From Lytechinus pictus (lineage: Eukaryota), in assembly GCF_037042905.1 (NCBI RefSeq), contig NC_087251.1, positions 28,522,001-28,586,000 of the forward strand: a stretch of 64,000 nt of DNA, given 5' to 3'. Each line of letters begins with the position of its first letter. Within the stretch, counting starts at the first letter, position 1. Below the pieces are notes generated by a model, which made no database searches, was not told the DNA's origin, and worked only from the letters and a program-made list of their open reading frames with translations. A program made the translations under genes and the position numbers. This document shows positions 23,701-63,633 of this stretch, piece by piece.

Positions 23701-26700
23701 GCGTATGATTCAAAATTTAAAAAAAAATCTGTTAAAAGAGAAACATTGTGATATGGTAATCTTCTTGGTCTATTTCACTTCATGAATACCCTGTAAGAAG
23801 AGATTAAATCTATGGTTAATGTACCAATCTGAAATCTATGTAACTTGTCATGAATTTTAGATTCATTATGAACTTTCTATAATTTGAGCAAGAAAGTCTA
23901 ATGATTTCTAATTGTCTTACATGTAGTAGTCATCATTGTTCTGATTGCAATAATCTTTGATTTGATCATTTAATTATCATTTGATCTTTTTCCTTACTAT
24001 TTTTATTCTCCAGGCACTACAAGAAGAGCTGAAAACTTTCCAGGACCAGTTAGAGCGCATGAACGAGGCTTGTCACCTTGTGCAGGCTGAAACTGGAGCC
24101 AGGAGTAAGCAGTTGATGCAACAGTCCCTTAACGATATCAATCAAAGACTCACCACCCTAGAGACAGAGGCTAGGCAAAGAGAACAACAGCTTGTAGAGA
24201 AGAACAGACAGTTCCAAGGCTTCCAGGTAAAGCTTTTTTATTTTCTTTCTCAAGATTTTGTTTAACTTTCTTTTTTCCCCATACCCAAAGACCCATAAGC
24301 TTACATTTAAGAATAATTATGTGGAGACAGTGGATTTTGCCCATCAACCTTTGAAAATATCCCTATGAGTAATCTGTTGGTCTGGAAACATTACAATTAC
24401 TGTAGAATTTGCCCCCCCCCCCCATGATTGGATGTGAAATCAAATGATGTTCTTCTCCATGTGCCTCTTGCTCCTCCTCCTCCTCCCCCTCCTCCTCCTC
24501 CTACCCCTCCTCCTTCTTCTCCTCCTCCCCCTCCTCCTCCCCCTCCTCCTCTTCCTCCTCTTCCTCCTCCCCTCCCCTTCCTCCTCCTCCCCCTCCTCTT
24601 CCTCCTCCTCCTCCTCCTCCTCCCCCTCCTCTTCCTCCTCCTCCCCCTCCTCCCCTCCTCCTCCCTCCCCCTTCTCCTCCTTCTCCTCCTCCTCATCCTA
24701 CTCCTCCTACTCCCCTCCTCCTCCTCCCCCCTCCTCCTCCTCCCCCTCCTTCTCCTCCTCCTCCCCCCTCCTCCTCCTCCCCCTCCTCCTCCCCCTCCTC
24801 CTCCCCCTCCCCCTCCCCCTCCTTCTCCTCATTCTCCTCCTCCTCCTCCTAGCCCTCCTCCTCCTCCCCCTCCTCCTCCTCCTCCTCCTCTTCCTCCTCC
24901 CCTCCCCTCCTCCTCCTCCCCCTCCTTCTCCTCCTCCTCCTCCTACCCCTCCTCCTCCCCCTCCTCCTCCCCCTCCTCCTCCTCCCCCTCCTTCTCCTCT
25001 TCTTCCTCCCCGCCCATTCCTCCAGCCCCTCCCCTTCCTCCTCCCCCTCCTCTTCCTCCTCTTCCTCCTCCCCCTCCCCCTCCTCCCCCTTCTCCTCCTC
25101 CTCATCCTCCTCCTCCTACTCCCCCCCCTCCTCCTCCCCCCTCCTCCTCCCCCCTCCTCCTCCCCCTCCTATCTCTGACTATCTTCTCTCTCTCTTTCTC
25201 TCTCTTCTTTCAAACAGACAAATAAATTGCTAATATTTTATATTGCATTACAAATTATGCAGAGAGCTCCAGCAATATGACTCGCTGCTCGTAAAACATT
25301 GCTGTTAGGAATTATAATGATGTCCACTTAGTTGAAGAAATGACTATTTACTTTGATATTTATATATTACAGAGAGACTTACAGAGCTTCCAGTTATGGC
25401 TAACCGGTGCTAAGGAACAACTGAACATCCCACCAAGCAATGTTAGTGGGGCTTCACTTGAAGATAATATCATTATCAACAAGGTAAATAAAACATTATA
25501 TACCATGTATTTTGTTAATAGATGATATGAATATTAAGGTAAATTAAAAAAACATTATTTACCACATACTTTGATACTAGGATATGATTTCAATATTAGC
25601 AAGATTATTATTTACCATGTATTTTCTTCTTATTTGGTTTAATGTATAATGTTTTTAAGTTTTGCATATAATTGTGAAAATACTGTGACACGTTTTTTGT
25701 AAATATGTAAACTATTTGGTCACTACTAAAGCGCAACTAAAGGGCTCAAATGAGTTATCCATGTAAGAAAAAATAAATGGAGCTTTGTTTTGTAAAGGCA
25801 TTAAAACTTGTTTTGCAAGGGAAACCAAATCAGTTTTAAGATTGCAATTTCTGCACAAGTTCAAACAAATCTCCAGCTCAATATTACCTGAATTTTAAAA
25901 GCGCAAGGTCAATCAGCATAACCTCTTTTAATGAATTATCTCTCATGTAACTGTAACTGCCTTCGTAAATAAACTTTTTGAAATGTGATTTGGCTGTAGA
26001 GACATTGCATAATTGTCACTCAGACAATGTTTTGGACATGGTTAACATTCCTCAGTAAACAGAGAAGATACACACTCAGTCATAAATGAAATCTGATGAC
26101 ACTGGTTGTAAGGTTGTAATGACAGTAGCTACATGTATTGGCGATAAGTCCATGTCTATACTCTCATTAACATTTCTTGTGATTAATCTCTGTACCTTCA
26201 CTCTCGTAGGAGGAAAGACTGAAGTTCCAGGTCAGGACCATTATTTCAGTTTCTTTGCTTCTCTTGCTGTCATTCCTTCTTGATAGATTTCTCTGTGCCT
26301 TTGATAGAAAAAGAAACACATTAGGCTTTTATGTAATTTACATGTATCAAGCAAACAAACTCCTGTCTGCATCGTTCTATGCAGTGCGCACATTTGAAGA
26401 ATTTGTTAAAAGTTTCAGTACAGAATTGTTTGCAAGGTGGCGGTCATCTGTCTCATACTTTTTTCTGTTATTTGTTTGAATGTCAATTTTCTATTTCTTA
26501 CAAGTTTTGTTATCAATCACTAATTCCTGATTTCATCTCCAAAGGGTCTTTTTTTTTCACCTGAAGATCTGGAGGTGGTCACAGTAACATAAACATGATT
26601 AATAATCCCAAATATATATCTTTGATTTGATTCAGTTGATGAATTCGAGTAGTGGTTCATTATCATGGGAAAATATATATGGGTCAGTCAGTGGCCATAT

Positions 26701-47700: not shown

Positions 47701-50700
47701 AAGTATTCATCATTAATTTGATCAGTAGTATCAGGTGAAGTTAGGGCTTAATAATTCCTTTATTGTTTGATATTTATTGCATAATTAATGTTGCTTTATT
47801 TGTCCTTGAATGTACAGGAGACAGAGAATGGTTTTGGTAACACTAAGGGTAAGCTTGAAATCCTGTACCAGAGGGAGAGTCAGTTGTGCCCCTCAGTCAG
47901 TCCTGATGACATGTCTGTCCTCCATGAGCGCATTGTCCTTCTAACTAAACAGCTTGATGAAGTACACCATCAGGTCTGTCAACGTAAACAGCGAATCACA
48001 GACAAGCTTAATGAATGGACAGCTTTCACTGATAAATATAAGGAATTCTCTGATTGGCTGACTGAGATGGAGATGAAGGTGTCACAAAATGGAGAGAACA
48101 GCATTGAAGATCTGCTTCAGAGGCTTCAAGGGGTGAGTTCTCTTCATTTTTAAAATTGTTTTTATGAAGAGTTTTATCCCAAAAAGCAAAGCTCTTTCCA
48201 ATTTGATAACTTCTAATAAGAAAACTTTTTTATCACATTTCATTCACGCATCTCTCAGGGAGTGACATTAGATGGTTCAGTTTTATTTTCAAAATTTTAG
48301 GTTGAAAGTAAAGAATACTTAAAATTGATTGATTAAAATAGATTTATTACATTCTACCATTCAACTCTTCAAATGTTGGAGGAAGAAACATTACTCTTTT
48401 GTCGTTTTATTTAAAGAAACTGATATTAGGGGCCAAAAGAGACATTTTAAATACATATCATATGCTTGGAGTGTAGATTTGATGATCAATTAGCAATAAT
48501 TCTCCTTTTGCTGATATTTTATGATTTTGTTCTAGGAAATCATTTTTAAGATTTGCAAATTACCCTTTCATAAAAAGTCAATTCTTGCCAGCTTTGTCCT
48601 AAATTTTTGAATATTTGTGTAATTTTTCACAAATATAAATACCCACATCATAAAATAGATTTGATGCCTCCTGGGACCCGTTTCATAAAAACTTTCGCCG
48701 TAAAAAACTCTGGCAAATTTTTTGCCAAGAGTTTTTTAAATTGAAGGTTTTTTGCCAGAGTATTTTAACGTGTAAATTTTCAATGGCATAATTTTGTTTG
48801 CCAGAGTTTTTGTTTAATTTGCCAGAGATTTTTTATGGCAAAAGTTTTATGCAACGGGTCCCTAGTTTAATAGATTCAAGATTCATATTTGTTGGATATA
48901 ATATTTTTGTCAACAGAGGGAGTACTTGCAAAAGATATATGCATGGTTATGTTGTGCTGCATAAAGTCACTGCATTGTCTACTTTTAGAAAATTAATTCA
49001 GTCATTCTTGCTAATTGCAGTAACAAGTAAATTCTATGAAAATACAAATGTTCTTTGCCTCTTTATGTATATGTATATTTATCATATCAAATTTCAAGTC
49101 ATTTAAAAGTATCAAAATAATTAAATTGTTTGGATGTTTTTAAACACAATACCAATTATGTAACCTTTAATATTATTCAATTTATTCACGCATAATTCTT
49201 ATTTTATTATTGGTAATGTTTATCTTTCATCGCCATATGTAAAAAAAGATATTCCTGTAGTATATTTTGCATTCAGAGCTGATAAGAAATGTAAGCATAA
49301 TGCTACCTCCCAGTACCTGACAAACCAATTTAATCCATTATGTAACTATACTTCACAAAACAAAGAGAGGAGTAGAGAGATATATACAGATAGAGAGATG
49401 TGGGAAATGGTGAGGGAAAGAGAGATAGAGATAGGGAAATAGAAAGAGAGGTGGTGAGAGAGAGAGAGAGAGAGAGAGAGATAACAACTTGGTTAAGTAA
49501 TCCTGATAAAAAAGTATACTTGATACAGAATTATTCATGGTAGCTACAGTACCAGCAGTAGTGCATATTAGTATTATACAATGGATAACCCATTCATGAT
49601 GTGAAGAAGGTTTATTTTCAAACTGAATTTGAAGTGGAATTATAGGTCTATTCACCACTGCATGTTTTTGTAAATAAGTTATGTAATCCTGATGATTGTA
49701 CTTGAGACAGAATTCTTCACAGTTGCAATAGAATTGCCAGCAGTATTGCCATAGGGTTTGTTATCACTCTGAATTTGAAGACAAATTTCAGTTCTCACCA
49801 TGCACTGCATGCTTGCTGTAATGATACCAAGATAGTCATGCAATTGATTCATAAAAGTCAAACTTTTATTTTCGTCTTTGGTAATATAACAACTCCTATT
49901 CCATCTTTAAATTGCTCTATGGACAGTTCAGCATGTTGAATGATGTACGACTTCTTGAAGTAAGTTATAATATTCAAAGATTTTAGAGCAATATTTGAAC
50001 ATATATTGAGAGAGGGGGTAAAGGGGAAAGAGAAAGGGAGTATGGTTTTCAACAAATTTATTCATTCCATTTTGTTTACTAATTTCAACGATTCTTTATC
50101 GTCCTTTTTCAAGTATATTACTGACAATATAAGTGATCATCAAAAATTTGTAAATCAAATTGAATAAAAATTTGTTAGAAAAGGCTTACCCATTCTGACA
50201 GACATGGTACTTTCTCTTCATTTAAATCTGACTTGTAATCTTTGCTCTTAAAACTTTTGCTCTTAATTATTCTGTGTGTTTTAGTGATAAGTTGTCATGG
50301 TGAACTTTTTCACACCTGCCACTTTTTCGTCATTAATGAGTTCATGATAGTTGCATTAGTCTAGGGTTTGTAGTATGTTTCAGCAAGGCCTAGTTTCAAC
50401 AAATATGATGGATATTGTCTCAATCAAATTTTACAACCGCAAAATGAAGATGGAGTTACGTTTTATATGTAGTTTCAGTTTATTTGACATTATTTTAATA
50501 TAGTCTCAAAATTTAATCCTAATTCTAAATAAGAACTAGTATTTGTATGATGTTATTTATCAAGTTTTCTCAAAGAATTTGAGATGGAAACATCTTGATT
50601 TATTTTATAGCCTTATTAATTATCATTTGTCATTGACAACGATTCATCCTGGTCCAAAGACTTTCTAAACATAAAATCTCACTGCCAGCATTCATTTGAA

Positions 50701-53700
50701 CATTAAGCGTGGGGTCTCTCACTATTAGGGCCCTTTCCTATTTTGACAGCATTAAACGGTCCCTTGAAGTTTAGAGAAACAAACCTTTAGTTTGTTTTAT
50801 GTAGGTCTCTCCATTGTAAACACACAGGAGCAAGTTCTGAAGGGAATAGTTTGGGCAAGCAATGCAAGCTATCAAACCCATGAAATATAACCCTTCTAAT
50901 TTGTCATTAGAGGCAATAGGGCTGTGGGCAATTTAGGGTGCGTTTATCCGCCACTTTTTTACCCTAGAATCATGATCTGAATCATGATTCAAATCATGAT
51001 TCTGCAGAATCACGATTGCGTTTAGTCGAAATTGAATATAATCATGATTAGAATCACAAACATGAAACACGAAAAAAGGGGCGTTTGGAAAGACGTTTCT
51101 GCAGAATCACGTACGAAAATGTTCGAATAAACGATATCGTGATTTGAATCATGATTATATGACCTCACTGTTGTGTCGGGCTACTTTCGGTTTGACTCTT
51201 GCCAAGCTCAAGGCGCTCTATATGCTCATTGTATGTACATGACTATGTACTATGAATTCATTTCTTGTCATGTTCAAGTTCTGTGTTGGTCATCGCATCG
51301 TCCACTACTTTTCATTTTTTGGTCATGTCTTCAACTTCAAGTTCTAGTAAATGAATTAACTGGACAGACAATGATCTCAGTTGTTGTTGAGTATACAGTA
51401 TCAATATCAAATTGGATCTACGCTGAAATTCACTTCCGAACACCATTTTGGATAAACTAACAAGATGAATAGAAGCATATGGACCCTTTATGATAGAAGT
51501 AAACAAAATGAGGTATAGACTGAATTCTGATGGAAGCAAAAGAATTTTCGAGAGCCGAAACATGTGCGAAAAACTTCCTCTGTCAAACTGCGCACTAATG
51601 ATGCGCACTGGATTGGCCCGAATCTGAGGAGAAACAGCATTGGAATGAAGGTCGTCTAAACGCTGATTCTGTGATATTGTGATTCATGTTTGTGTTTTGA
51701 ATCATGATTCAAATCATGATTCAAATCATGATTCTGGCTTGAGGTCGCATAAACGCAGCCATATATATACAGATAGAGAGATGTGGGAAATGGTGAGGGA
51801 AAGAGAAATAGAGATAGGGAAATAGAAAGAGAGGTGGTGAGAGAGAGAGAGAGAGATAACAACTTGGTTAAGTAATCCTGATAAAAAAGTATACTTGAGA
51901 CATAATTATTCATGGTAGCTACAGTACCAGCAGTAGTGCATATTAGTATTATACAATGGATAACTCATTCATGATGTGAAGTAGGTTTATTTTCAAACTG
52001 AATTTGAAGTGGAATTATAAATTTCTTCACAACTGCATGTTTTGTAGATAAGTTATGTAATCCTGATGATTGTACTTGAGACAGAATTCTTCACAGTTGC
52101 TATAGAATTGCCAGCAGTATTTTATCACTCTGAATTTGAAGACAAATTTCAGTTTTCACCACTGCATGCTTGTTGCAATGATGCCAAGATAGTCGTGCAA
52201 TTGATTCATAACAGTCAAACTTTTGCTCGTCTTTGCTAATGAATGTTATTTAATTGCTCTATTGATGGTTCAGCATGTTGAATGATGTACAGCTTCTTGA
52301 AGTAAGTTATAATATTCAAAGATTTTAGAGCAATATTTGAACATATATTGAGAGAGGGGGTAAAGGAGAAAGAGAAAGGGAGTATGCGTTTTCAACAAAT
52401 TTATTCATTCCATTTTGTTTACTAATTTCAACGATTCTTTATCGTCCTTTTCAAGTATATTACTGACAATAAGTGATCATCAAAAATTTGTAAATCAAAT
52501 TGAATAAAAATTTGTTAGAAAAGGCTTACCCATTCTGACAGACATGGTACTTTCTCTTCATTTAAATCTGACTTGTAATCTTTGCTCTTAAAACTTTTGC
52601 TCTTAATTATTCTTTGTGTTTTAGTGATAAATTGTCATGGTGAACTTTTTCACACCTAAAGCGCTCTTGTTGCTATGGAAACGCTCTCAGTGGGGTGACA
52701 CGTTTCGCGCAAAATTCGAAACCGCAGCATAGGCATTCTACACCTGTCGTGTGGAGTAGCGCGCTCAAAATGTGCGAAGATCGCTTCCCGAAGAACGGTT
52801 GTGTCCTCACTTACGCTAAAACCAGTTTAACGAGGCAAAGCGATCTTGAAAACTACATCGCGAGGTGGTTTTCCAAACTGGTTTGGAAGATCGCTTCCAA
52901 GACCGCTTCGACCGTTCTCACTACGCGTTAAACTAGTTTCCACTAAACTAGTTTCCAGTAAACTAGTTTTAGGAACGTAGTGAGAACAGCCTCCTAGTTT
53001 CAACAAATATGATGGATATTGTCTCAATCAAATTTTACAACCGCAAAATGAAGATGGAGTTACATTTTATATCTAGTTTCAGTTTATTTGACATTTTTTA
53101 ATATAGTCTCAAAATTTAATCCTAATTCTAAATAACAACTAGAATTTGTGTGATGCTATTTATTAAGTTTTCTCTAAGAATAAGATGGAAACATCTTGAT
53201 TTATTTTATAGCCCTATTAATTATCATTTGTCATTGACGACGATTCATCCTGGTCCAAAGACTTTCTAAACATAAAATCTCACTGCCAGCATTCATTTGA
53301 ACATTAAGCGTGGGGTCTCTCACTATTAAGGCCCTTTCCTATTTTGACAGCATTAAACGGTCCCTTGAAGTTTAGAGAAACAAACCTTTAGTTTGTTTTA
53401 TGTAGGTCTCTCCATTGTAAACACACAGGAGCAAGCTCTGAAGGGAATAGTTTGGGCAAGCAATGCAAGCTATCAAACCCATGCATGAAATATAACCCTT
53501 CTAATTTGTCATTAGAGGCAATAGGGCTGTGGGCAATTTAGGCTGATTCAATAGAATGGAGGCCAGTGAAATGGAATGAACATCTACAATTACTAATCAC
53601 TCACAGTAGGATAGCAGTGTTCACACATAATGGGTATACAAAAAGGTCATGAGTTTTATCATAAATTGAACTCCAATGATATGCATTGAGTTCTGTCAAG

Positions 53701-56700
53701 ATCATCTAGAAAAACTGTAAAATGGTTATGATAGATAATTTTGTGTAGTTATGGATGAACAAAATATAAATTAATTTCCTTCTGAATTCTGTGATAAAAG
53801 AAGAATTCCGAAAATTAAAACTTTGTACATGAAGATTCCATGTCATGAAATCTTTTTGGGAAATAAATCTCTCATAGAATTTACTTACCTAATAAAATCT
53901 GAGTCTTAAAACTTGGTTTCCATGCATTCCTTAAATTTCATCAGACTTGAAATTTATATGAATGGGAAAACTCCCTTCATTGTCTGGAGTCAATGGAGAA
54001 TGAAATGTAAAATCATATCACTATCTCATTTAGAAATTTTCATTAATAAAAAATTGTGGTTTTACGACAATCGATCTTAAATTAAATTTAAAAATCTCGG
54101 AAGCCATTTGCTATCAATCAAGCTGAGAGCATTAATGAAGCGAATGAACACACCCACCATGTCACAACCCAGTCCAAACATACTTGAGATGGCAACCCTG
54201 TACAGGCCTGTGGCATGCTCGCATGGAGGTACTAGCTGGTAGCAACCATTACCTGTCAGTAGCAGTGACGCAGAATGCCTCTTGAGGTTGCTAAAGGATA
54301 TCTAATTTCCCCCTTCCCTCATTGAGGTCTGGCTAGTCTCCTGTCACAGCCTATCCATTTATGCATTTTAAGAACGAGTTCATCGGAAATAATACTATTT
54401 CATGGGATGTCTTAGATGTCGTGTATCAACAAGACACTATTGCGATGAAAGGTCTGCGATTTAATCTGCAGTTATGCACTTCTGAAACACAGATAGGGAT
54501 AGTTGCGCCAGGTCAAGAGTCTATTGAAGGACTGAAACAACTTGGATAGATGGATTCATCTGAAGAAAATCAGTTACCATTGTGCCTCTGCTTATTCTAC
54601 CATGCCATCATCAAGAACATTACAAAGGAATTATAGGATATATCACAGCACTTAGTAGAAGAAACTGCTTCTCCGTCAGTTTATCTATCTGTTTTTGGAG
54701 AACCGTAAGCTATCTGGATAGCCATTTTTGGATTTTGTGTTCTGTAAGGAAGTGTTGATCCAGGAATTGAAGGATTTCAAAGTCGGCAGTCTCGGAAGTT
54801 GAACGGTATCCTGCTCCATCAACAGTTAGGGATTTCTGCTCTTTGCTTTGGAACTTCTGTTTCATGGCTGTCTGTCTAAATTCAACAAGTTTGGCAACTA
54901 AAACTAGTATGTAAAGTATTACATTTTCATGAGAACATCTTGAAAAAAAAAGATATGTAATTTGAATAGAATGTCATCCAGATACTCTAGGGTATGTCTT
55001 CTATGTATCAAAAATCTAACAAAGTTGCTCTTTTATCATGTATTGGATAACTGTTTAAGGCCAATTTCAAGTGAAATTTGTAACAGTCATTTTTTAATAA
55101 ATATTCTGAGTGCTTGATTTTAGGTTCGATTTTTCATCCATTTTTTGTATACCTTTCATTAGTGCAATTACCTTTTAAGATAAGCTTAGAAGAATAAGCT
55201 ATAGGTGATGTGTGGATAATCTGGATTAAGTAAATGATTGAAGCTGTAAAGAGGACAAACCATCTAGAATAGGGCTCATTCACACACAGAAAATTCATGA
55301 AAGTGTAGTTTTAGATGGGATGGTAAAATTACACATTGCCTATAAAATTGGGCACAGATAAAAAGATGAAAATTCTGAATAAAATTTCGCTTATTCTGTC
55401 AATAGATTTGAATGCATTTTACTGTTGAGCCTAATGTGGAATTTGATAAGACCTAACAATGAAATTGTTGGATTACATGTTTTCTGTAGAATTATTGATA
55501 TCACATACAGTGGGTTTAAAAATATACAAAGATCACTGAAGGAAATTTAGATTAAATGGACATACTAGTTCCTGTTTAGATTAACTTGAGTGACGTTGTA
55601 CGTGAAACATTTCAGGGATATTATCTGACTGATTCTAATTCAAGAGGCAGTTGCAGAGACACGAGAGAGAGAAAGTAGAAGGGAATCACAGAGACAGAGT
55701 ACTAGATTTAGAAAGTGAGTGTGATAGAGAGATATATGGCAAATGGGAAAGTTCAGCAGAGACAGATTAATAGGTTGAGAGTAAGAGGGAGACACAGCAA
55801 CAGACTAAGTATAGAGCAAAAGAGAGAGAGAGAAAGGGTAAAAGCTAACACATTTTGGAGGATAATACAGTAGTGAAAGAGAGAGAGAGAGTGAGAAAGT
55901 AAAAGGGAAACACATCGACACAGAACGGTAAGAGATAGTCATCATTTCCTCAGTTATCTATGTAACGGTGACTCAAGGAAGTAGTTAATGACTGGGTTAA
56001 CTTGCAGAGAACAATAGAATTGACCAATAGGAATCAAGAAGAACTTCTTTCAAATGCTAGATTTCGTGTAATTTTGCCGTGAGTTCAAGAGTTATGGAGT
56101 TGCTTTATTTCAAAATGGTTGATATGCCGGCTGACATAGCAAGTACATTGGAATATTTAGATGAGCTGCAACATGATATTATGGTATCTTATTTTGTTTT
56201 CCATTCTTAAAGATATTGAAAGTGGCTTAGATCAGCATAAGCAGTGTATTTGAAGTAGACATTTTTTAATAGGAACCGATGTGTTTTGTCTCCTATATGT
56301 TTATCACTTATCCTCACATGTATTATAACATTCTATAGCTTATTTAAAGTATTCTGTTCTCAAGAATTAGGAGAGTGAAGAATTGTACATTTGTGAAAAC
56401 TCATTTATTTGTAATTATGAAACACTTTGCAAGATTTTCATATTTTTCATGAAAAAATAGTTTTTCTGACTTCAGAGAAAGTGGAAATAACTAGATCATG
56501 TTTAAAACGTTTTTTTTTAGATTGCTTTTAGAGACTTTAAAAATATAATTGGTGTTTTAATAAGTCTTTATCGCCCAGGGTAGTGTTAATGATGTTCTTC
56601 CTGAGTGATCATTAAAAGCAACCATTTTATTATGAGGCAGTCTAAATAAAGAAAGGACTGTGAATATGATGACAGTGACGCACTGTCTTAAGTTCTTTAA

Positions 56701-59700
56701 AAAAAGAGTTTTTCCCTAAAGAGATGATGTGTTTGAATATTATATATGAGGATGGAGATTTGACAATATTAGTTCAGTCCTGAACAGTTCTTTCTCTTAT
56801 ACTGTAGTTTTTGTATTCATATATATGTTTTATTATTTGTATTTTGACGATGCATCTATCAGAAGAGCAGTTTATTTCAATTTGTATTGTCTTTGTTGTT
56901 ATATTCCTATGCACTCTCAAGATAAGTGATTTCTAAATTACACTATTATTGAATACTTCATTAATTTCGAGTCACTGAATGATTTATTTTTCTAGGAATA
57001 TCAAGATGAGATCAAACAAGCTAAGCCCAACAAGACCCATCTAGAAGCAGTGGGAGCGAAACTAATTCCAGCTAGCAATGAGGCTCGAGCCAGTGATATT
57101 GAGTACAAGTTGGCCAAACTGAATGACCGCTGGATGAGACTCATGGAGCTGGTGGATGCAAGGTGAGTTTGAAAGTTCGCATACTGTTTTGGTCATTGAG
57201 TGAATGATTGAGTCTTACATGTTGAGTTTTGCATGGGAAAGATAGGAACTGTTTGAGTAAAACATTAATCAGCTTCAAAGACAAAGAGGTAAACATGGTG
57301 ATGATTTGGGGATAAATGCTGATAGATTTTATTTGAGTGTATATACTCACATGAAATAAAAATCTATACAGTGCGTCCCAGTAATAGGGAAACCAGGATT
57401 CACATGTCTTTATTCTTTAAAGACAATTGATAATGATATTTTATTTACATACTCATATTCCTCTTCATTTTCATACATAATATGAGACAAACACTTCACG
57501 CATTAATGCGTTAAAGACGAGTTTGAAATTTTAATGTCAAAACCAGGTTGCGCAGAAAACTTGGACAAGATTGGTTTGTGAAACAACGACTGTGCCTATT
57601 CGACAATTATTATTTGTTTCTCGTCACCTGTGCCTGGGAGGCGAAAAGCGAACTGAATCACTATGACCCGCAGGTCTCTCCTCTCGATATAACTGATTGG
57701 GGGGAGTGCAGGTGGACCACTACACTGGGGTTTCCCCCTACTCTTATGCGAAAAGTGCAGTGGGTTCTTAACGTGCAATGGTGGTGACTCTCCTCTACAC
57801 GGGGCCTTCATTTAACGTCCTATCCAAGGGACAGAGTGTTTTCCATTGTAACATAGCCTGCATAGATCTATGAAACATGGGAGAGACGTTTACACACAAC
57901 GCACTGCCTTCAGTCATCCGCCCGGGGTGGACTTGAACCCACGATCTTTGGTTCGACGGGCATACGCATTACCGACTGAGCCAAAAATGCTCTCTTTAAT
58001 TGACAATTGGCTTATTAGAATTTCTGTTATATTCTTTGTTAAGATTCTCTAGCTGATCCCTGAAACGAGAGTGGATTCAGATTCACGCATGAGTTTCTGC
58101 GCAAATCGTTTCTGATATGCCTCAATATGTATTGTTTCTAATCTGCCATGCGTGAATGATTTGCTATGCTGTTGGTTTCAAATTAGAGAGGAGATTCTTT
58201 TCTTGCCATGAGTATCAAATTTATAGTAAAAACATACTTAATAATTGTGAAATCTATCTCTGAAAACAGGTTTTCTTTTTTATGGGATGCTCTGTATAGG
58301 AATCAGGATTTGTCAAAATTTAAATGATTTGAGTTGAGTCAACATTTGTGAATTTATATCATTAGCTTGGGTGTTGAGTAAAAGTGAGGCAAACTCAGTG
58401 ACAGTTGGATGAGACTCGTGTAGCTGGTTGATGCAAGTTGAGTTTGAGACTTTTGATTTCACTGTGATTGAGTGAGCAGATAATATTGATATTAAATGTG
58501 ACTTACATAGGATAGATATGCAGCTGTTAGAGGAAAACAGAATTTGGCTGATGAGAGTTTTAGAGGGATGATGAGTTTGTTGTGAACGTTTAATGTTGAG
58601 TCAACACGTTAGTTTAAATTGTATCACTAGCTTGGATATTGAGCAAAAGTTGAGTAAAATCTGAATAACTTTTGGATGAGACTCCTGGAGCCAGTCAGGC
58701 AAAGGTCTTGGGAGGCATGCATCGGAAACACATGCATTCACAACTTTCTGAAAATGCTCTCTTTTTTAAGAGAGAAAGGCATTAATATTATATTAAGAGC
58801 TAGTTGACACATAAGTTTTGATAAAAAAATTACCGCGGTAAATTATTTTGAGCTTGCAGATGAGATTGAGTAAACCTTATTGAGATGATTAAACAAGCCT
58901 TGAAATGAACCATAGTTTTTTACCTTTTCCTGTAAGAATTGGCTGTAAAATAGGGAATGGTTATATTATAATAAATCTATTTAAAATAGGGAATGGTTAT
59001 ATTATAATAAATCTATTTTATTTGTTGAAATGATGAGGCTGTGTAAAAACGGAAATCTATTTGCGTTATTCATTTGGTTGGATGTGTGGCAAGTCAGATT
59101 TGAAAAAGGAGAGGCACATGACATGTATACATGAATGTTTGATATGATCAATTCCTTATGGGCATCTGTAGTGCAAAATACAAGGACAAGGGGTACATCA
59201 TGGTCAAGCTCACAAGGCGTACTATCCATACCTAAGGTCAATGCCTCCCTCTATACTGGTGATATACTCCCCAATGGCATGTATGGTATGCAGAGAACAC
59301 AGCGAGAGAACATCCTGCAGAGAAATCAATTACTTGGTGTGTGCATGAATTGAAATAAACACTATTCATGATGTTTATTTCTTCCACACACTTTTTTATT
59401 CTGTCAGTTAGGGTAACAGATGTTTTATTTTTGGATACATTTTGTAGTGAGATTTATGGTTAGATATCAGTTGATACACATAATAAAGATCTGTAAATTT
59501 GATAAGAATCCCCTAGTTTTTGTGATGAACTCACTGCATTTTGTATACTTATGGTACAAAAAGCATAATGTTACTAATTTGATGGATTGATATGATAATT
59601 GTGTTTGTTGAGTATAGCCCCCCCCCCTCTCTCTCTCTCTCTCTTGCTCTCTGGTCAGTGTGAACAAATAGGGAAAGAAAAGATATTGATTTTTATTTTT

Positions 59701-62700
59701 CAAATTTCAAATGTTAGAAAATCAATAGAAAGTGTTTACCACAGATACATTCTCTTAATAATGAGGATTTGTTTGTTGAAGGACATGAGCGAGTGCCATC
59801 ACTTACTTGTGTGCCCTTAGCGAAGTAGATCACCCCCTTCAGTGAGCATCTATCAGCACCTTACAACAACTGGTTTCAGTCAAAAGCATTATTTACAAGC
59901 AGCAACAGAGCAGAGTGAACAATTGTGTTTACAAACTCCTTTGGTAAAGTTTTGAGCCCCAGCCTTTTTCGTACCAGTATAGGCCTATGTAGCTTTCAAT
60001 CTGTTCCTGCAAGACAGTGTATGACATACACACCCAGATTTGTAGAGGATTTTGACTATTTCTTGCTGATTTTGGATTAGTTTGGAGGATTTGAGTCATG
60101 AATGTTTGCAGTACAGTGACCATGATGGATAAGCCTTTGCTGATTAGTATCTGAAAGTGAATTGTTGCAGAATACAGGGATATCAAATTTACTAAGCTGT
60201 TCTATATAATGGATCCTCTAGCATTTGAGTTGGATTTGGGTATTTTCTATATATTTTTGATATATTCTATTGAAGTGAAGACCTTTTCCTTGGCTTTTGG
60301 AAGATTGTTGGTGCACTACATAATTTGATTTTTGTTTGTTATTGATGCTAGGAAAATGGAAAAAAAAATTATTTGTATGAAATCAGCTATAGGCAACTAA
60401 TACTTCGAGCGGGTGATCTTCTACTCTAACTTGAACCCAAATTTACACTTTTATATAAGAAGGGATCTGTTTCACTTTTTTGCCAACCAATCATTTCTTT
60501 ACTCTGTATTTTTTTTCTTCAAATGTAGCGGCTTAGACCACACTTTATTAAAAGTCAATCTGTATTTTTCTTATAAATTCTTTGTCACGTCATAGGCCTA
60601 TGTGTAATCGCTGCATTATTATTGCATAGCTTTTATACTTTGGGCAGTTCAATTGAAAAACTTAAATCTTTTTATTGACCAGCAGTATAACTTAGATAGG
60701 CCTAAGACAGGTTGAATGATAACCAATTTGCTGGTACCACCTAATGGGTTTATTGGGGTTATTCAAATAGGATTAGCCTACAGAATGAAGGGGTGTCTTT
60801 GCTCTTGTACTTACAGTGTTAGCCTTTTTCACAATAAATAAGTTCAGCCATGATAAACTTATTTGGAAGGTTATAACAGTTTGTGACCCTTGTTGATGTT
60901 TGCACATGATATATTACCTTAAAAGCTTGATTATATAGGCCCCTGATTGATAAATGATTTCTCCAACATTGTTTATTTCTTATTATAGGCCTACTCAGCG
61001 CATATTGAAGAGTTATTTTAAATTTTATTTCCCATTCATTATCTTAATATTTTCCCTATTTAAAGGTCAAGTCCACTCCAGTAAAATGCTGACTCGAATA
61101 AATAGAGAAAAATCAAACTAGCATAGTGCTGAAAATTTCATCGAAATCGGATGTAAAATAAGAAAGTTATGACATTTTAAAATTGCGCTTATTTTTCACA
61201 AAACAGTGATATGCACAAATGACTAGTTGAGTCAGTCGATGATGTCCATCACTCACTATTTCTTTTGTTTTTTATTGTTTGAATTATACATTATTTCATT
61301 TTTTATAGATTTGACAATAAGGACCAACTTGACTGAACCATGTAGTATCAAACAATGCTAATTCCACATGTTCAGGGAGGAATTAATCGTTGTATCCCTT
61401 GACAATGAGGAGAAAATTAGAAAATTTCATAATTCATATAATAAAATACAAAATAAATAGTGAGTGGATGATGTCATAGTCTCCTCATTTGCATACCAGC
61501 CAGGATGTGCATATAACTGTTTTGTGAAATTAAGCGAAACTTTAAAATGTCATAACTTTCTTATTTTACATCTGATTTTGATGAAATTTTCAGTGTTATG
61601 CTTGTTGGATTTTTCTCTTTTTATTCAAATCAACTTTTTGTTGGGGTGGACTTGTCCTTTGAAATGCTGGATGAGTAAAAATATCATTTCTGTGTATATC
61701 ACCACAACATTCCGATGCTAAGTTATGAAAGGGTTATGAATCATTAGCTCATAGCCTAATTAACCCAAGACACCAGCCAGAAAACATTTCAAGGCAAATA
61801 TCATGAACACATGTTCATATTCATGATATAACTTATTCACTTCACAGTGATACAGTGATATACATATGCCTGCAAGAGATAACATTTGATTTATCAGACT
61901 ACCAAAGACTTACAGACTGATGAGTTAACCGAATGTTATCGTTCTGTATCACCACCAGTGCTTATATTTGCCGACTAGTATCTTGATAATTTATGAGTTG
62001 AGACAGATTTAGTCTGAAGGGGATATGGGTCATTTGTCATGAGTGAGACATCAAGGAAAGAACTTGACTGATTCGTGGGAGCCAATATCCAGGCATCTAC
62101 CATCTTATTTCAAGGAGTGATTAAACTTTGGTTCAGTGAATTAATGATGATGACAGGCGTGATCATACCAAATATTGCTGGTCATTAAATTGACCACATG
62201 GTATTCGAGTAGACAGGCATACACATACTCCAAGCTTCAATTGATGTGGTAGATGAGTTTCAGTATTGGCCTTGTATGGAGAACATTTTGCTCCAGCTGT
62301 ACTCTGTACTGAAAAAGGGATATATTTGATTTTCGTTCAGAACTTTTCCTTTGCATTCAGTGAAGCCTTTTACTTTCCTGCTTTATCAATTGCTGTTCTC
62401 AAGGTACTCTTTCCGAAATCTCTCCGAAATCTACAAAGGCTGCATGCCAAGTTTTGTTGTTTGTTTGACCTCAGTTCAATCACACTTACTGCCTTCTCAG
62501 AAGTGTGTTGGTTTGGGGGTAATTGTGAAGTGGGCACCATTATTAGAATGTTGATTTTCAACACAGGTTTTCTCCAAGTTGTGGATATTGTTCATCCAGA
62601 TGGAATACATGACGGAGCCTTACAGCATTGATGAGGATTATATATGGACTGTTTGCAGCGTCGTATAGGACTCTTCTGTACATGACTCAATAGGAGACCG

Positions 62701-63633
62701 AATATACCATTGGGCCTTCATATTGCACTGAGGGAACATAAGGCTGTGAGAAGACTTGATATTATTATACTCAGTTTGTGATGTCTGAGGATTAAGTAAT
62801 GGAAGTTTGATTTCAAGCTAGAGAACATACAGAGAGAAGGATCCAGGATCATCAGCCAAGGGTTTTACCCATAAACTTTCAAATCCTTGATTGTGCCAAC
62901 ATTGATATGTGATTGATCCTTCACTGTTATATGGAAATGGAGCATTTAAAGACTCCGGTAAAGGAGTTCAGGGCTTCTTCCCTCTCCTCTCCTGCTACTT
63001 CCCCCGTAACCCCAAGGTACAAAATAAACATGGGCTCTGTTGAAGAAGAAGAAGAAGAGGACCAAGAATTCAATATTTTCAGCTTACTTAAACCTAGGTA
63101 GGTCACTAAAAGAGTGCTGAAATAGAGGGTGTTAATTTTTTTGTAAAATGGTACTTGATGGGGTTTTTCTGTAAAGTGGAGAATGTTTGATGTTGATTTA
63201 TGCTTCTAGATTCAATCTTCGTGCTCTGAAATTGATTCTGCACAAAATGTGTGAACGTGTGAGGCTTAATTCTCTATTTCTGATCTCCCGTGTCAATCCT
63301 TAATTTTCATCATCAGAAGCAATCACTGTTTGCTTGTGTCAAGAACATGCAGCTAAACATTCTTATTTAATTTTCAAATGAATGACAATGAACAATAATT
63401 TTAAACTGAGTATTGCTTTGATGATATTGATGCAAGTCGGAAATTTCATCAAATTTCATTATACTTTCAGAGTGAAGAAGTTGAAAGACACCTTGACTGC
63501 CGTCCAGCAGCTGGAGCAGGACATGAGTAAACTACGAGAATGGTTAAGCAGAGTAGAAAGAGAACTCAACACTCCGCTCACATACGAAACGTGTCATATG
63601 CTGGAGATAGAAACCAAACAGAAATTTCATGAG
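14503..63633 (+). CDS. SYNE1: Nesprin-1-like giant spectrin-repeat protein (LINC complex), partial: 25 spliced exons, 1691 codons; gene extends beyond both window edges
   Basis: Exons thread into one open frame with canonical AG/GT and consistent phases (21 phase-0 and 3 phase-2 introns). The translation has spectrin-repeat Trp/heptad patterns. Segments such as LNEIGYR..QQQNFAQKCKSWMKFLADTEQSLAVDIAGSYDELLEQQKVYELFEADIFNRQQIL and ASDIEYKLAKLNDRW..ARVKKLKDTLTAVQQL closely resemble vertebrate nesprin-1 as recalled. Confidence 0.92.
16424..16561 (+). CDS. SYNE1: Nesprin exon (DTPFVHHLPARRNLQL...WAKMESQ)
   Basis: ttgctag|GAT ... CAG|gtaggg; 138 nt open, phase 0-0; absent from the ORF track. Confidence 0.82.
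16660..16908. repeat. (CAT)n imperfect microsatellite
   Basis: Direct reading; explains the poly-H/I/S/D/M ORFs. Confidence 0.95.
21275..21362. repeat. (GAT)n imperfect microsatellite
   Basis: Direct reading. Confidence 0.9.
23425..23583 (+). CDS. SYNE1: Nesprin exon (VSDQQSRLEQ...QLTEHA)
   Basis: gtttcag|GTA ... GCT|gtaaga; 159 nt. Confidence 0.88.
24014..24226 (+). CDS. SYNE1: Nesprin exon (ALQEELKTFQ...QFQGFQ)
   Basis: ctccag|GCA ... CAG|gtaaag; 213 nt. Confidence 0.9.
24471..25170. repeat. ~700-bp (CCT/CCC)n homopyrimidine tract
   Basis: Direct reading; explains the poly-P/L/S/R/G ORFs. Confidence 0.95.
25373..25483 (+). CDS. SYNE1: Nesprin exon (RDLQSFQLWL...NIIINK)
   Basis: ttacag|AGA ... 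AAG|gtaaat; 111 nt. Confidence 0.86.
27734..28314. mobile_element. Foldback MITE with TTAA target duplication (Kolobok-like)
   Basis: ttaa|agggatggtccgggct ... agcccggaccatccct|ttaa; ~190-bp inverted arms. Confidence 0.88.
28550..28880. repeat. CT-rich minisatellite, 104-bp period
   Basis: ctacattaatctccctctctct recurs at 28633, 28737 and 28841. Confidence 0.85.
30021..30215 (+). CDS. SYNE1: Nesprin exon (VLESEANG...AKILQ)
   Basis: caacag|GTC ... CAG|gtcagc; 195 nt. Confidence 0.88.
30791..30916 (+). CDS. SYNE1: Nesprin exon (EQYHKILKDY...LQKHK)
   Basis: tactag|GAA ... AAG|gtaaaa; 126 nt. Confidence 0.88.
31139..33624 (+). mobile_element. tRNA-derived SINE split by a nested insertion (31139-31190 plus 33385-33624)
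   Basis: A-box tggcctagtgg; B-box region gagggtcgt|ttctaatccc interrupted; CORE-like ccttTggcaag...gggtaccc body; (tta)n tail. Confidence 0.72.
31191..33384 (+). mobile_element. Non-autonomous Helentron/DINE-1-like element with an 11-unit 163-bp tandem array
   Basis: 5' subterminal gtctcgcctgcat with a local hairpin (gtctcgc...gcgagac) and short (ggc)n; tandem array; inverted partner atgcaggtgagtc near the 3' end; T-rich insertion site with no clear TSD. Confidence 0.8.
34027..34329 (+). CDS. SYNE1: Nesprin exon (EFFSDLDTHHIL...IHKYQ)
   Basis: atatag|GAA ... CAG|gtaatg; 303 nt open. Confidence 0.88.
34709..35026 (+). CDS. SYNE1: Nesprin exon (AMKGLLEGKQ...LEEFS)
   Basis: tttccag|GCA ... 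TCT|gtaagt; 318 nt. Confidence 0.9.
35615..35803 (+). CDS. SYNE1: Nesprin exon (KLQKDIETHT...LHQSQ)
   Basis: ttacag|AAA ... CAG|gttggt; 189 nt. Confidence 0.87.
36419..36556 (+). CDS. SYNE1: Nesprin exon (MELLPSRQAL...VQVYK)
   Basis: ttgcag|ATG ... AAG|gtatgt; 138 nt. Confidence 0.9.
36997..38021 (+). mobile_element. Second copy of the same Helentron/DINE-like family with 4 units
   Basis: Same termini as the 31191 copy (gtctcgcctgcat ... atgcaggcgagac ... ccacttgtt); unit spacings 192, 163, 163, 163. Confidence 0.8.
38241..38387 (+). CDS. SYNE1: Nesprin exon (GYKVDLSCHLLTVEFVNQS...MNQRWQ)
   Basis: gtacag|GGT ... CAG|gtatga; 147 nt; the LTVEFVNQS..DKTDFAE motif is recognisable from nesprin-1. 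Confidence 0.92.
38411..38980. mobile_element. Small MITE carrying a nested palindromic element (~38432-38891)
   Basis: Outer inverted ends tcaggggag / ctcccctga; inner CpG-rich segment with a long imperfect palindrome at ~38447-38615. Confidence 0.55.
39399..39584 (+). CDS. SYNE1: Nesprin exon (ALNGRVGEE...LRTCQ)
   Basis: ttacag|GCC ... CAG|gtatgt; 186 nt. Confidence 0.9.
39964..40275 (+). CDS. SYNE1: Nesprin exon (AIEEHIKSK...TTKLR)
   Basis: taacag|GCT ... AGG|gtaggt; 312 nt. Confidence 0.9.
41544..42009. mobile_element. Tc1/mariner-like MITE
   Basis: ta|cagtgcgtcccataaaaaaggaaacc ... ggtttccttttttgtgggatgcactt|ta. Confidence 0.78.
42132..42265 (+). CDS. SYNE1: Nesprin exon (GVQLELRSS...NISS/R)
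   Basis: tcatag|GGA ... AG|gtattc; 134 nt, phase 0-2. Confidence 0.87.
42770..43019 (+). CDS. SYNE1: Nesprin exon (WSKAEDEL...CTKCQ)
   Basis: tgatag|G TGG ... CAG|gtatga; 250 nt, phase 2-0. Confidence 0.9.
43359..43487 (+). CDS. SYNE1: Nesprin exon (EILVDVESY...VLQQ)
   Basis: ttacag|GAG ... CAG|gtcagt; 129 nt. Confidence 0.86.
44027..44224 (+). CDS. SYNE1: Nesprin exon (RLDTLQQSL...MDKLK)
   Basis: ccccag|CGT ... AAG|gtaagt; 198 nt. Confidence 0.9.
44949..45251 (+). CDS. SYNE1: Nesprin exon (LLLVDFTENQ...QKVYE)
   Basis: tttcag|TTA ... GAG|gtgagc; 303 nt. Confidence 0.92.
46076..46269 (+). CDS. SYNE1: Nesprin exon (LFEADIFNRQQ...DRNI/R)
   Basis: atgcag|CTG ... AG|gtaaga; 194 nt, phase 0-2. 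Confidence 0.92.
46725..46857 (+). CDS. SYNE1: Nesprin exon (DWQSYRTSL...HEQTK)
   Basis: acacag|G GAT ... AAG|gtaatg; 133 nt, phase 2-0. Confidence 0.9.
47258..47578 (+). CDS. SYNE1: Nesprin exon (MTQKLVSVQE...LQRCK)
   Basis: tctcag|ATG ... AAG|gtgagt; 321 nt. Confidence 0.92.
47818..48132 (+). CDS. SYNE1: Nesprin exon (ETENGFGN...QRLQG)
   Basis: gtacag|GAG ... GGG|gtgagt; 315 nt. Confidence 0.92.
48673..48862. mobile_element. Short palindromic MITE
   Basis: gggacccgtttcataaaaacttt...ctctggcaaatt / aatttgccagag...aaagttttatgcaacgggtccc. Confidence 0.75.
50936..51760. mobile_element. Non-autonomous DNA transposon (Harbinger-like TIRs) with subterminal aatcatgatt repeats
   Basis: gggtgcgtttatccg ... 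cgcataaacgcagcc; multiple palindromic aatcatgatt units at both ends. Confidence 0.8.
52658..52992. mobile_element. One-ended transposon fragment
   Basis: CpG-rich insert absent from the paralogous copy; ends tagtgagaacagcct with subterminal aaactagttt repeats; no matching left TIR. Confidence 0.65.
56094..56183 (+). CDS. Candidate alternative first coding exon (MELLYFKMVDMPADIASTLEYLDELQHDIM)
   Basis: 30 open codons ending at ATG|gtatct, phase 0 matching exon 56996; second ATG in caaaATGg context; the donor is weak. Confidence 0.4.
56996..57162 (+). CDS. SYNE1: Nesprin exon (EYQDEIKQAK...LVDA/R)
   Basis: ttctag|GAA ... AG|gtgagt; 167 nt, phase 0-2; absent from the ORF track. Confidence 0.92.
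57369..58294. mobile_element. Tc1/mariner-like MITE (same family as 41544, opposite orientation) containing a SINE
   Basis: ta|cagtgcgtccca ... tgggatgctctg|ta; reverse complement of its right end matches the left end of the 41544 element (gatagatttcacaattattaa). Confidence 0.78.
57604..57994 (-). mobile_element. tRNA-derived SINE with a Deu-like central domain
   Basis: On the minus strand: A-box tggctcagtcgg, B-box ggttcaagtcc, central ggataggacgttaaa...gcacgttaagaacccactgcacttttcg...agagtagggg resembling the Deu domain as recalled, (taa) tail; gacaatt on both flanks. Confidence 0.78.
61064..61658. mobile_element. Foldback MITE of a related TTAA family
   Basis: ttaa|aggtcaagtccac ... gtggacttgtcct|ttga; long inverted arms; shares the gaaaatttcatc(a/g)aaatcgga core with the 27734 element. 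Confidence 0.85.
62931..63097 (+). CDS. Candidate alternative first coding exon of a short (alpha-like) nesprin isoform (MEMEHLKTPVK...SLLKP/R)
   Basis: In-frame TGA at 62910, then 55 open codons, then donor AG|gtaggt in phase 2, matching the phase-2 acceptor at 63471. Confidence 0.65.
63471..63633 (+). CDS. SYNE1: Nesprin exon (VKKLKDTL...QKFHE)
   Basis: tttcag|A GTG ... GAG|gtaagt; 163 nt, phase 2-0. Confidence 0.92.

Follow-up and report, generated by a model that had tools for sequence, protein, structure and literature searches.

An alternative first coding exon at the nesprin-1alpha2 splice junction of a sea urchin nesprin gene

Introduction

Are the short nesprins of the alpha2/epsilon-2 type, on which the positioning of nuclei in vertebrate muscle depends, confined to vertebrates, or was their internal start already in place in an early deuterostome? 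The question is raised by a 64,000-nucleotide stretch of the genome of the sea urchin Lytechinus pictus (the window; G000:C7:28522001-28586000 of an 812-Mb genome), in which 25 exons match the nesprin of Diadema antillarum and one intron holds a further 55-codon frame, placed at the splice junction used by vertebrate nesprin-1alpha2. Positions below are those of the window unless a genome coordinate is given.

In vertebrate muscle, nesprin-1alpha2 serves as the anchor for kinesin-1 and for the microtubule organising centre at the nuclear envelope, and it carries mutations found in muscular dystrophy and cardiomyopathy (PMC10317153, PMC5458344). The portions of the literature cited here discuss it in vertebrates only, and a literature search, whose results were partly crowded by unrelated papers, returned no paper describing a short nesprin in an echinoderm. 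The isoform described below is a real alpha2-like nesprin from outside the chordates, and apparently an undescribed one. We read its 55-codon exon as an alternative first coding exon on the alpha2 junction, with an internal promoter inherited from an early deuterostome, and put the probability of that reading at roughly 0.55.

Splicing of the alternative exon

The frame lies at 62931-63095 on the forward strand and was read directly from the window sequence. Two further nucleotides complete a coding part of 167 nt (62931..63097), which ends in phase 2 at the donor CCTAG|gtaggt at 63097. An in-frame TGA at 62910 closes the frame upstream, no AG lies between this TGA and the ATG, and joining to the acceptor tttcag|A at 63471 gives the peptide ...LLKP-R-VKKLKDTL. 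The first-pass annotation of this DNA had pointed to the frame, the stop, the AG-free gap, the donor and the in-frame join, all of which were borne out, and the Ser/Thr-Pro-rich, acidic N-terminus that it described is likewise present as a Ser/Thr-Pro cluster and an acidic stretch. Two of its supporting arguments did not hold. Phase 2, which it called uncommon, occurs in 4 of the 14 introns downstream of the 63471 exon. The AG-free gap, which it took as a sign of a first exon, is no proof of one because it covers just 18 nt and the acceptor 62566|62567 is in use, as seen in four X21 reads. An ATG frame of at least 50 codons with an equally strong phase-2 donor occurred in 14 of 1000 simulated introns, and in 5 of 1000 when the lack of AG was also required; eight such frames were listed in the window, the 55-codon frame being the only one outside known nesprin exons.

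In its spliced form the alternative exon spans 62567..63097 on the forward strand (531 nt), with a 364-nt leader containing upstream ATGs before the coding part. RNA evidence came from 5 runs among 21 listed, under coded sample labels. X1 comprises contigs of this species and X9 comes from a related species that is ~5% divergent; no run is recorded as RNA, and both were treated as such on the strength of exon-joining contigs and zero intron depth. Counts for the candidate joint cover X1, X9, X20 and X21, with X19 standing outside that count. The joint 63095/63469 (GT..AG; with the cut at +2, 63097 -> 63471) was found in an X1 contig at a depth of 13.1 and in an X9 contig at a depth of 13.3. 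Among raw reads it was crossed by one in X20 and none in X21. The shorter side of the joint measures 30 letters, one under the bridging bar of 31. Read depth was zero across 63139-63433, inside the 63097-63471 intron, and the reads on the 55-codon exon share their strand with the canonical nesprin exons. The junction that the first-pass annotation had proposed to look for in RNA is present in both sets of contigs and in the X20 read, and the donor whose loss in a relative it would have counted against itself is kept there. We state with little reservation that the 55-codon exon is transcribed and spliced 63097 -> 63471 in two species, which is the first step of the mechanism proposed here, and that a non-coding route leads into it from upstream.

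The acceptor at 63471 opens the first exon shared by both isoforms (63471..63633, +), the homologue of human SYNE1 exon 131. In the long isoform the canonical upstream exon (56996..57162, +; Pfam Spectrin match 3e-6), the homologue of human exon 130, competes for this acceptor. The long-form joint 57160/63469 (57162 -> 63471) was crossed by 27 reads in X19, 23 in X20 and 14 in X21, and its depth in X1 was 23.3, versus 13.1 for the short form. The share of the short form accordingly ranged from a few percent of junction reads up to about one third of contig depth, the latter being a poor measure.

Predicted short protein

The only nesprin-type KASH match in the genome (Pfam PF10541, 4.1e-29) lies 13 kb beyond the window. 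The best nesprin CH match is on the forward strand at C7:28414535 (E 1.8e-7), about 107 kb before the window, and is a candidate for the N-terminal CH domain of the long form. Past the window edge, 63471..63633 is followed by fourteen exons (G000:C7:28587090-28599029), the last of which carry KASH. The model of the short isoform has 16 coding exons, with GT..AG at 15 of 15 introns, is open to KASH and predicts a protein of 968 aa and 110.0 kDa. Its downstream exons were placed from splice signals and the Diadema match, with one exon fixed by way of the Diadema protein, and the first two joints are the ones directly seen in reads. A single X1 unitig of 4414 nt has its start at the shared exon, as would be expected if the 3' part is unbranched.

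The model is 80% identical to the Diadema nesprin over residues 111-968 and ~40% identical to vertebrate alpha2 proteins. It is CH-less and contains spectrin repeats, an LDWD kinesin-type motif at residue 473, a motif also present in the amphioxus and Diadema nesprins, and KASH at its end. The CH-less, KASH-retaining architecture expected by the first-pass annotation is thus upheld by the predicted protein.

A short protein is probably made from the alternative exon. Translation from one of three ATGs would give up to 968 aa, with an acidic Ser/Thr-Pro head, repeats matching spectrin repeats (SR) 69-74, an unstructured region with LDWD, and KASH. On the vertebrate work, KASH would bind SUN at the nuclear envelope and LDWD would bind kinesin light chain, as was shown for the LEWD motif of alpha2 (PMC5458344). 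Since vertebrate KASH anchors and the W-acidic motif binds kinesin, the urchin isoform would link nuclei to microtubule motors without actin tethering, and in some cell types it would swap actin tethering for microtubule-motor coupling. By this analogy the short isoform probably acts as a kinesin adaptor.

Comparison with vertebrate short nesprins

The 31-aa sequence of alpha2 is placed before human SYNE1 exon 131 (PMC4924313, in the part used here), and the human exon-130 peptide given in the same source matches the window exon 56996-57162. Vertebrate homologues were compared through the best 120 of 493 matches in a profile search, a vertebrate-saturated set in which just three entries looked non-vertebrate (an amphioxus, a Diadema and one other). 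Among these 120, 69 carried the alpha2 head directly before VKKL(K/R)ETL, 27 had the canonical exon, 14 had something else and 10 were without the exon start. The 69 carriers spanned cartilaginous fish (Callorhinchus, Amblyraja), ray-finned fish, amphibians, reptiles, birds and mammals, and their heads end at the same R|VKKLKETL junction, so the first-pass statement that the alpha2 exon joins the homologous exon at the same splice position stands. A primate nesprin-2 model (P0284, 103.4 kDa) has 7 unique residues followed by the same exon. As nesprin-2-epsilon-2 was reported at 103 kDa (PMC3981789), we infer by mass that P0284 is epsilon-2; instead of coming from an exon of its own, the P0284 head could be read-through of the intron.

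As nesprin-1alpha2 is described in the consulted parts of PMC4924313 and PMC10317153, both isoforms place a unique N-terminal exon on the exon-131 homologue and share the R|VKKL junction, and both are CH-less proteins of ~110 kDa, the urchin one by prediction, with an acidic head, SR69-74-type repeats and KASH. The W-acidic motif is LDWD in the urchin and LEWD in nesprin-1alpha2. The heads themselves differ: that of the urchin has 55 residues (or 53 or 22, depending on the ATG), with a Ser/Thr-Pro cluster and no cysteines, whereas that of alpha2 has 31 and a conserved Cys-x-Cys end. The urchin isoform also differs in its upstream non-coding exon, and no DV23-like exon was found in its model. 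Nesprin-2-epsilon-2, as far as it is described in PMC3981789, resembles the urchin form in size and structure, while the head of P0284 has just 7 residues. Judged from predicted protein and exon structure, the urchin isoform is alpha2-like by its architecture and its splice junction, not by its head peptide, which suggests that where the isoform starts counts for more than the peptide added there. In an echinoderm with apparently one nesprin gene and the same junction, the age of the division of labour between giant and short forms becomes testable in an accessible embryo, as does the role of the short form outside striated muscle.

Origin of the internal start

In the reading that we prefer, the position of the promoter would be ancestral and the head peptide would have been replaced or would have drifted. 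A number of results pull the other way. The short form is minor in raw reads, with 1 junction read versus 37 for the long form in X20 and X21 together, and the spliced leader holds eight upstream ATGs. The urchin head showed no similarity to the alpha2 head: against a hidden Markov model (HMM) of the 69 vertebrate heads, 649 of 2000 shuffles did at least as well, and 195 of 2000 were as good in an anchored comparison of the two heads; by the HMM, the conserved 31-aa alpha2 head is absent from the urchin form. The coding part showed no excess conservation against the related species (5 listed substitutions in 165 coding nt, 32 in 794 leader nt, with 13 further substitutions and 12 indels outside the set of differences counted), and three of the five coding changes alter two residues (E2Q, S36I). 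No such exon was present in any of 14 amphioxus models, all of which have the canonical exon at the junction, in gene models that can miss minor isoforms. Nesprin genes have many internal starts (PMC3388047, in the part used here), and the short Diadema antillarum model P0265, which may be a fragment, starts one exon later.

Independent origin of the promoter in sea urchins, with the isoform itself real, is a serious rival that falls somewhat short of even odds. It would follow from selection for a start just before the unit of SR69-71, kinesin motif and KASH, a start that few introns fit. The unrelated heads and the amphioxus models fit this account, as does the exon having been seen in just two close species. 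Human SYNE1 5' ends also lie in the neighbouring introns 128/129 and 132/133, according to the part of PMC3388047 consulted. The later start of P0265 is shared with a Logan protein (P0257); both are ~870-900 aa long and carry a few unique residues on the exon-132 homologue, being either fragments or an isoform that starts one intron later. Set against convergence is the choice of one and the same intron out of more than 100, a choice shared with SYNE1 throughout the jawed vertebrates and apparently with SYNE2. The SYNE2 head itself does not resemble that of alpha2, which shows that the peptide found here may vary, and minor isoforms may be missing from the amphioxus gene models.

A precedent in another giant gene of the spectrin family also argues against convergence. 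Sea urchin dystrophin SuDp98 arises in an intron orthologous to that of Dp116, and its authors infer an ancient promoter (PMC1790709, in the part consulted). Dp116, G-utrophin and SuDp98 resemble the present case in that a short C-terminal isoform comes from an intron orthologous between vertebrates and urchins; SuDp98 differs in belonging to another gene and in using an internal translation start (PMC1790709), whereas the urchin nesprin exon can add a peptide of its own. Isoforms G and M of Drosophila Msp300 are likewise invertebrate CH-less, KASH-bearing nesprins, with transcripts of 21-43 kb that are not alpha2-sized, and the excerpts consulted from PMC8616381 describe no start at this junction. 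The dystrophin precedent and the fly CH-less isoforms make the finding less surprising. It is the lack of head similarity and of such an exon in the amphioxus models that keeps the inherited promoter near the probability given above, with convergence close behind.

Wider searches were made for the exon. Among the best 150 of 208 matches to exon 131 in cluster representatives, which were mostly genomic exon fragments, no alpha2-like head was seen, a search uninformative on absence because even the vertebrate alpha2 head was not returned. The first of two metagenome scans gave no loci, and the second gave nine, but intron 130 was in no case both complete, usable and in the matching position. In two other animals (L019 and L020) the introns around the exon-131 homologue lie several codons off the deuterostome positions, so the junction is not universal. 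A nesprin on a metagenome contig (L015:7713-9620, partly L016 and L017) has a 636-codon low-complexity frame on the strand of the gene, in an 8.4-kb intron after the exon-131 homologue; it may be an alternative start or an insert exon, and no strong in-phase donor was found for it.

A stronger version of the inherited promoter appears improbable to us, namely that the alpha2/epsilon-2 promoter was already present in the last common deuterostome ancestor and that the urchin head is kinase-regulated (CDK/ERK/GSK3-type) and would switch kinesin coupling in embryos or muscle.

Head peptide and start codon

The 55-residue head has TP8, SP20, SP24 and TP27, together with TPVK, PVTP and three S/T-x-x-x-S/T-P patterns. 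Labels of CDK, ERK and GSK3 on such a head denote consensus motifs, and matches of this sort are common in Ser/Pro-rich peptides. Asp and Glu make up 35% of the last 23 head residues in the urchin versus 29% in alpha2. In-frame ATGs lie at 62931, 62937 and 63030. The first is weak, with T at -3; the second and third are in better contexts, and that of 63030 is the best, with A at -3 and G at +4.

The short transcript could be real and the full head incidental, with translation starting at the third ATG (giving a 22-aa acidic head) or at a Met of the shared exon and the Ser/Thr-Pro motifs having no role. We consider this doubtful; it would be compatible with an ancestral or a convergent origin alike. 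The ATG contexts point towards it, as do the E2Q and S36I changes and the lack of excess conservation in the coding part among the listed differences. Among the listed differences, however, the frame stays open, and the one listed coding indel is of 3 nt, whereas of the 11 leader indels listed, 10 would shift a reading frame. This preservation of frame is a weak point, since the 3-nt loss sits in a GAA run. TPVK is also retained in the relative, through a synonymous change, which speaks against an incidental head.

Searches with the head gave blanks. The 55-aa peptide alone returned 76 candidates with none at E <= 1, which is weak evidence either way, and it had no usable Atlas match, no Pfam family and no match among the fetched proteins, all weak blanks. 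Among proteins of 96-2000 aa with the urchin head or exon, no close one was found except one genomic fragment.

Transcript 5' ends

Apparent transcript 5' ends fall inside the homologue of intron 130 in both contigs and reads. The first-pass annotation had proposed an internal first exon. The 55-codon exon does hold up as the first coding exon, although it is not always the first exon, because four X21 reads join an exon ending at 59943 to the acceptor at 62567. In these reads the part left over beyond 62566 on the 5' side, a median of 56 nt, maps uniquely to 59913-59939. The upstream non-coding exon is accordingly given as 59888..59943 on the forward strand, with its 3' end at 59943 (TTTG|gtaaag); its start at 59888 is the reach of the median read and not necessarily a true 5' end. 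X21 depth was 0.4 and 0.17 in the bins at 59692-60173, and a motif scan found an initiator-like TCAGTC at 59876-59881.

Other transcripts contain a 5' extension of the alternative exon (62137..62566, +), which may be a second start site or a retained intron. The X1 contig runs over 62214-63095 and the X9 contig over 62137-63095, neither with a loose 5' end; low-depth X9 pieces extend to 61900, and X19 depth begins at the bin 61861-62101. As the second step of the mechanism, one route starts in the non-coding exon ~2.6 kb upstream, as the four reads show, and other transcripts extend the exon 5'.

That the giant transcript instead uses the exon as a cassette or poison exon is very improbable. 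In favour of this reading, the acceptor at 62567 works, the 59943 exon may reach further 5' (a pyrimidine tract with CAG lies at ~59620-59658) and splice joints were judged among those listed, with 46 more outside that set. Against it, an X1 unitig passes directly from the exon-130 homologue to 63469, the candidate unitigs of two species begin within the intron with no loose 5' end, and there is no depth over 58487-59691.

Vertebrate alpha2 expression is myogenin-driven (bioRxiv 2020.12.11.421263, in the part consulted). Near the urchin 5' ends, the motif scan found no CArG or MEF2 site and no enrichment of E-boxes; the one CAGCTG box, at 62294, is no more than the background density would give, and it is altered in the relative.

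Other features of the locus

Within the 6.3-kb intron 57162-63471, two high-copy interspersed repeats occupy 57520-58270 and 60900-61660, the second of them between the non-coding and the alternative exon. Depth over both reached hundreds to thousands, mostly from other copies. The alternative coding part and the exon-130 homologue are both 167 nt long, and origin of the former by duplication of the latter was rejected, the two being 23% identical, a value that 3912 of 5000 shuffles equalled or bettered.

Ahead of the exon-130 homologue, the intron 48133-56995 is likewise long (~8.9 kb), and it corresponds to the region of the reported vertebrate alpha1/epsilon-1-type starts. At 24400-25170, another nesprin intron contains a long tract of simple repeat that is rich in pyrimidines and strongly skewed between the strands. 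Beyond the window, a same-strand MADS-box gene lies ~11 kb past the nesprin stop (G000:C7 ~28.610-28.628 Mb, L004-L006) and is presumably serum response factor, judging from its translation. The next gene, at ~28.649-28.661 Mb, is one that we take from its translation to be SNW1/SKIP-like.

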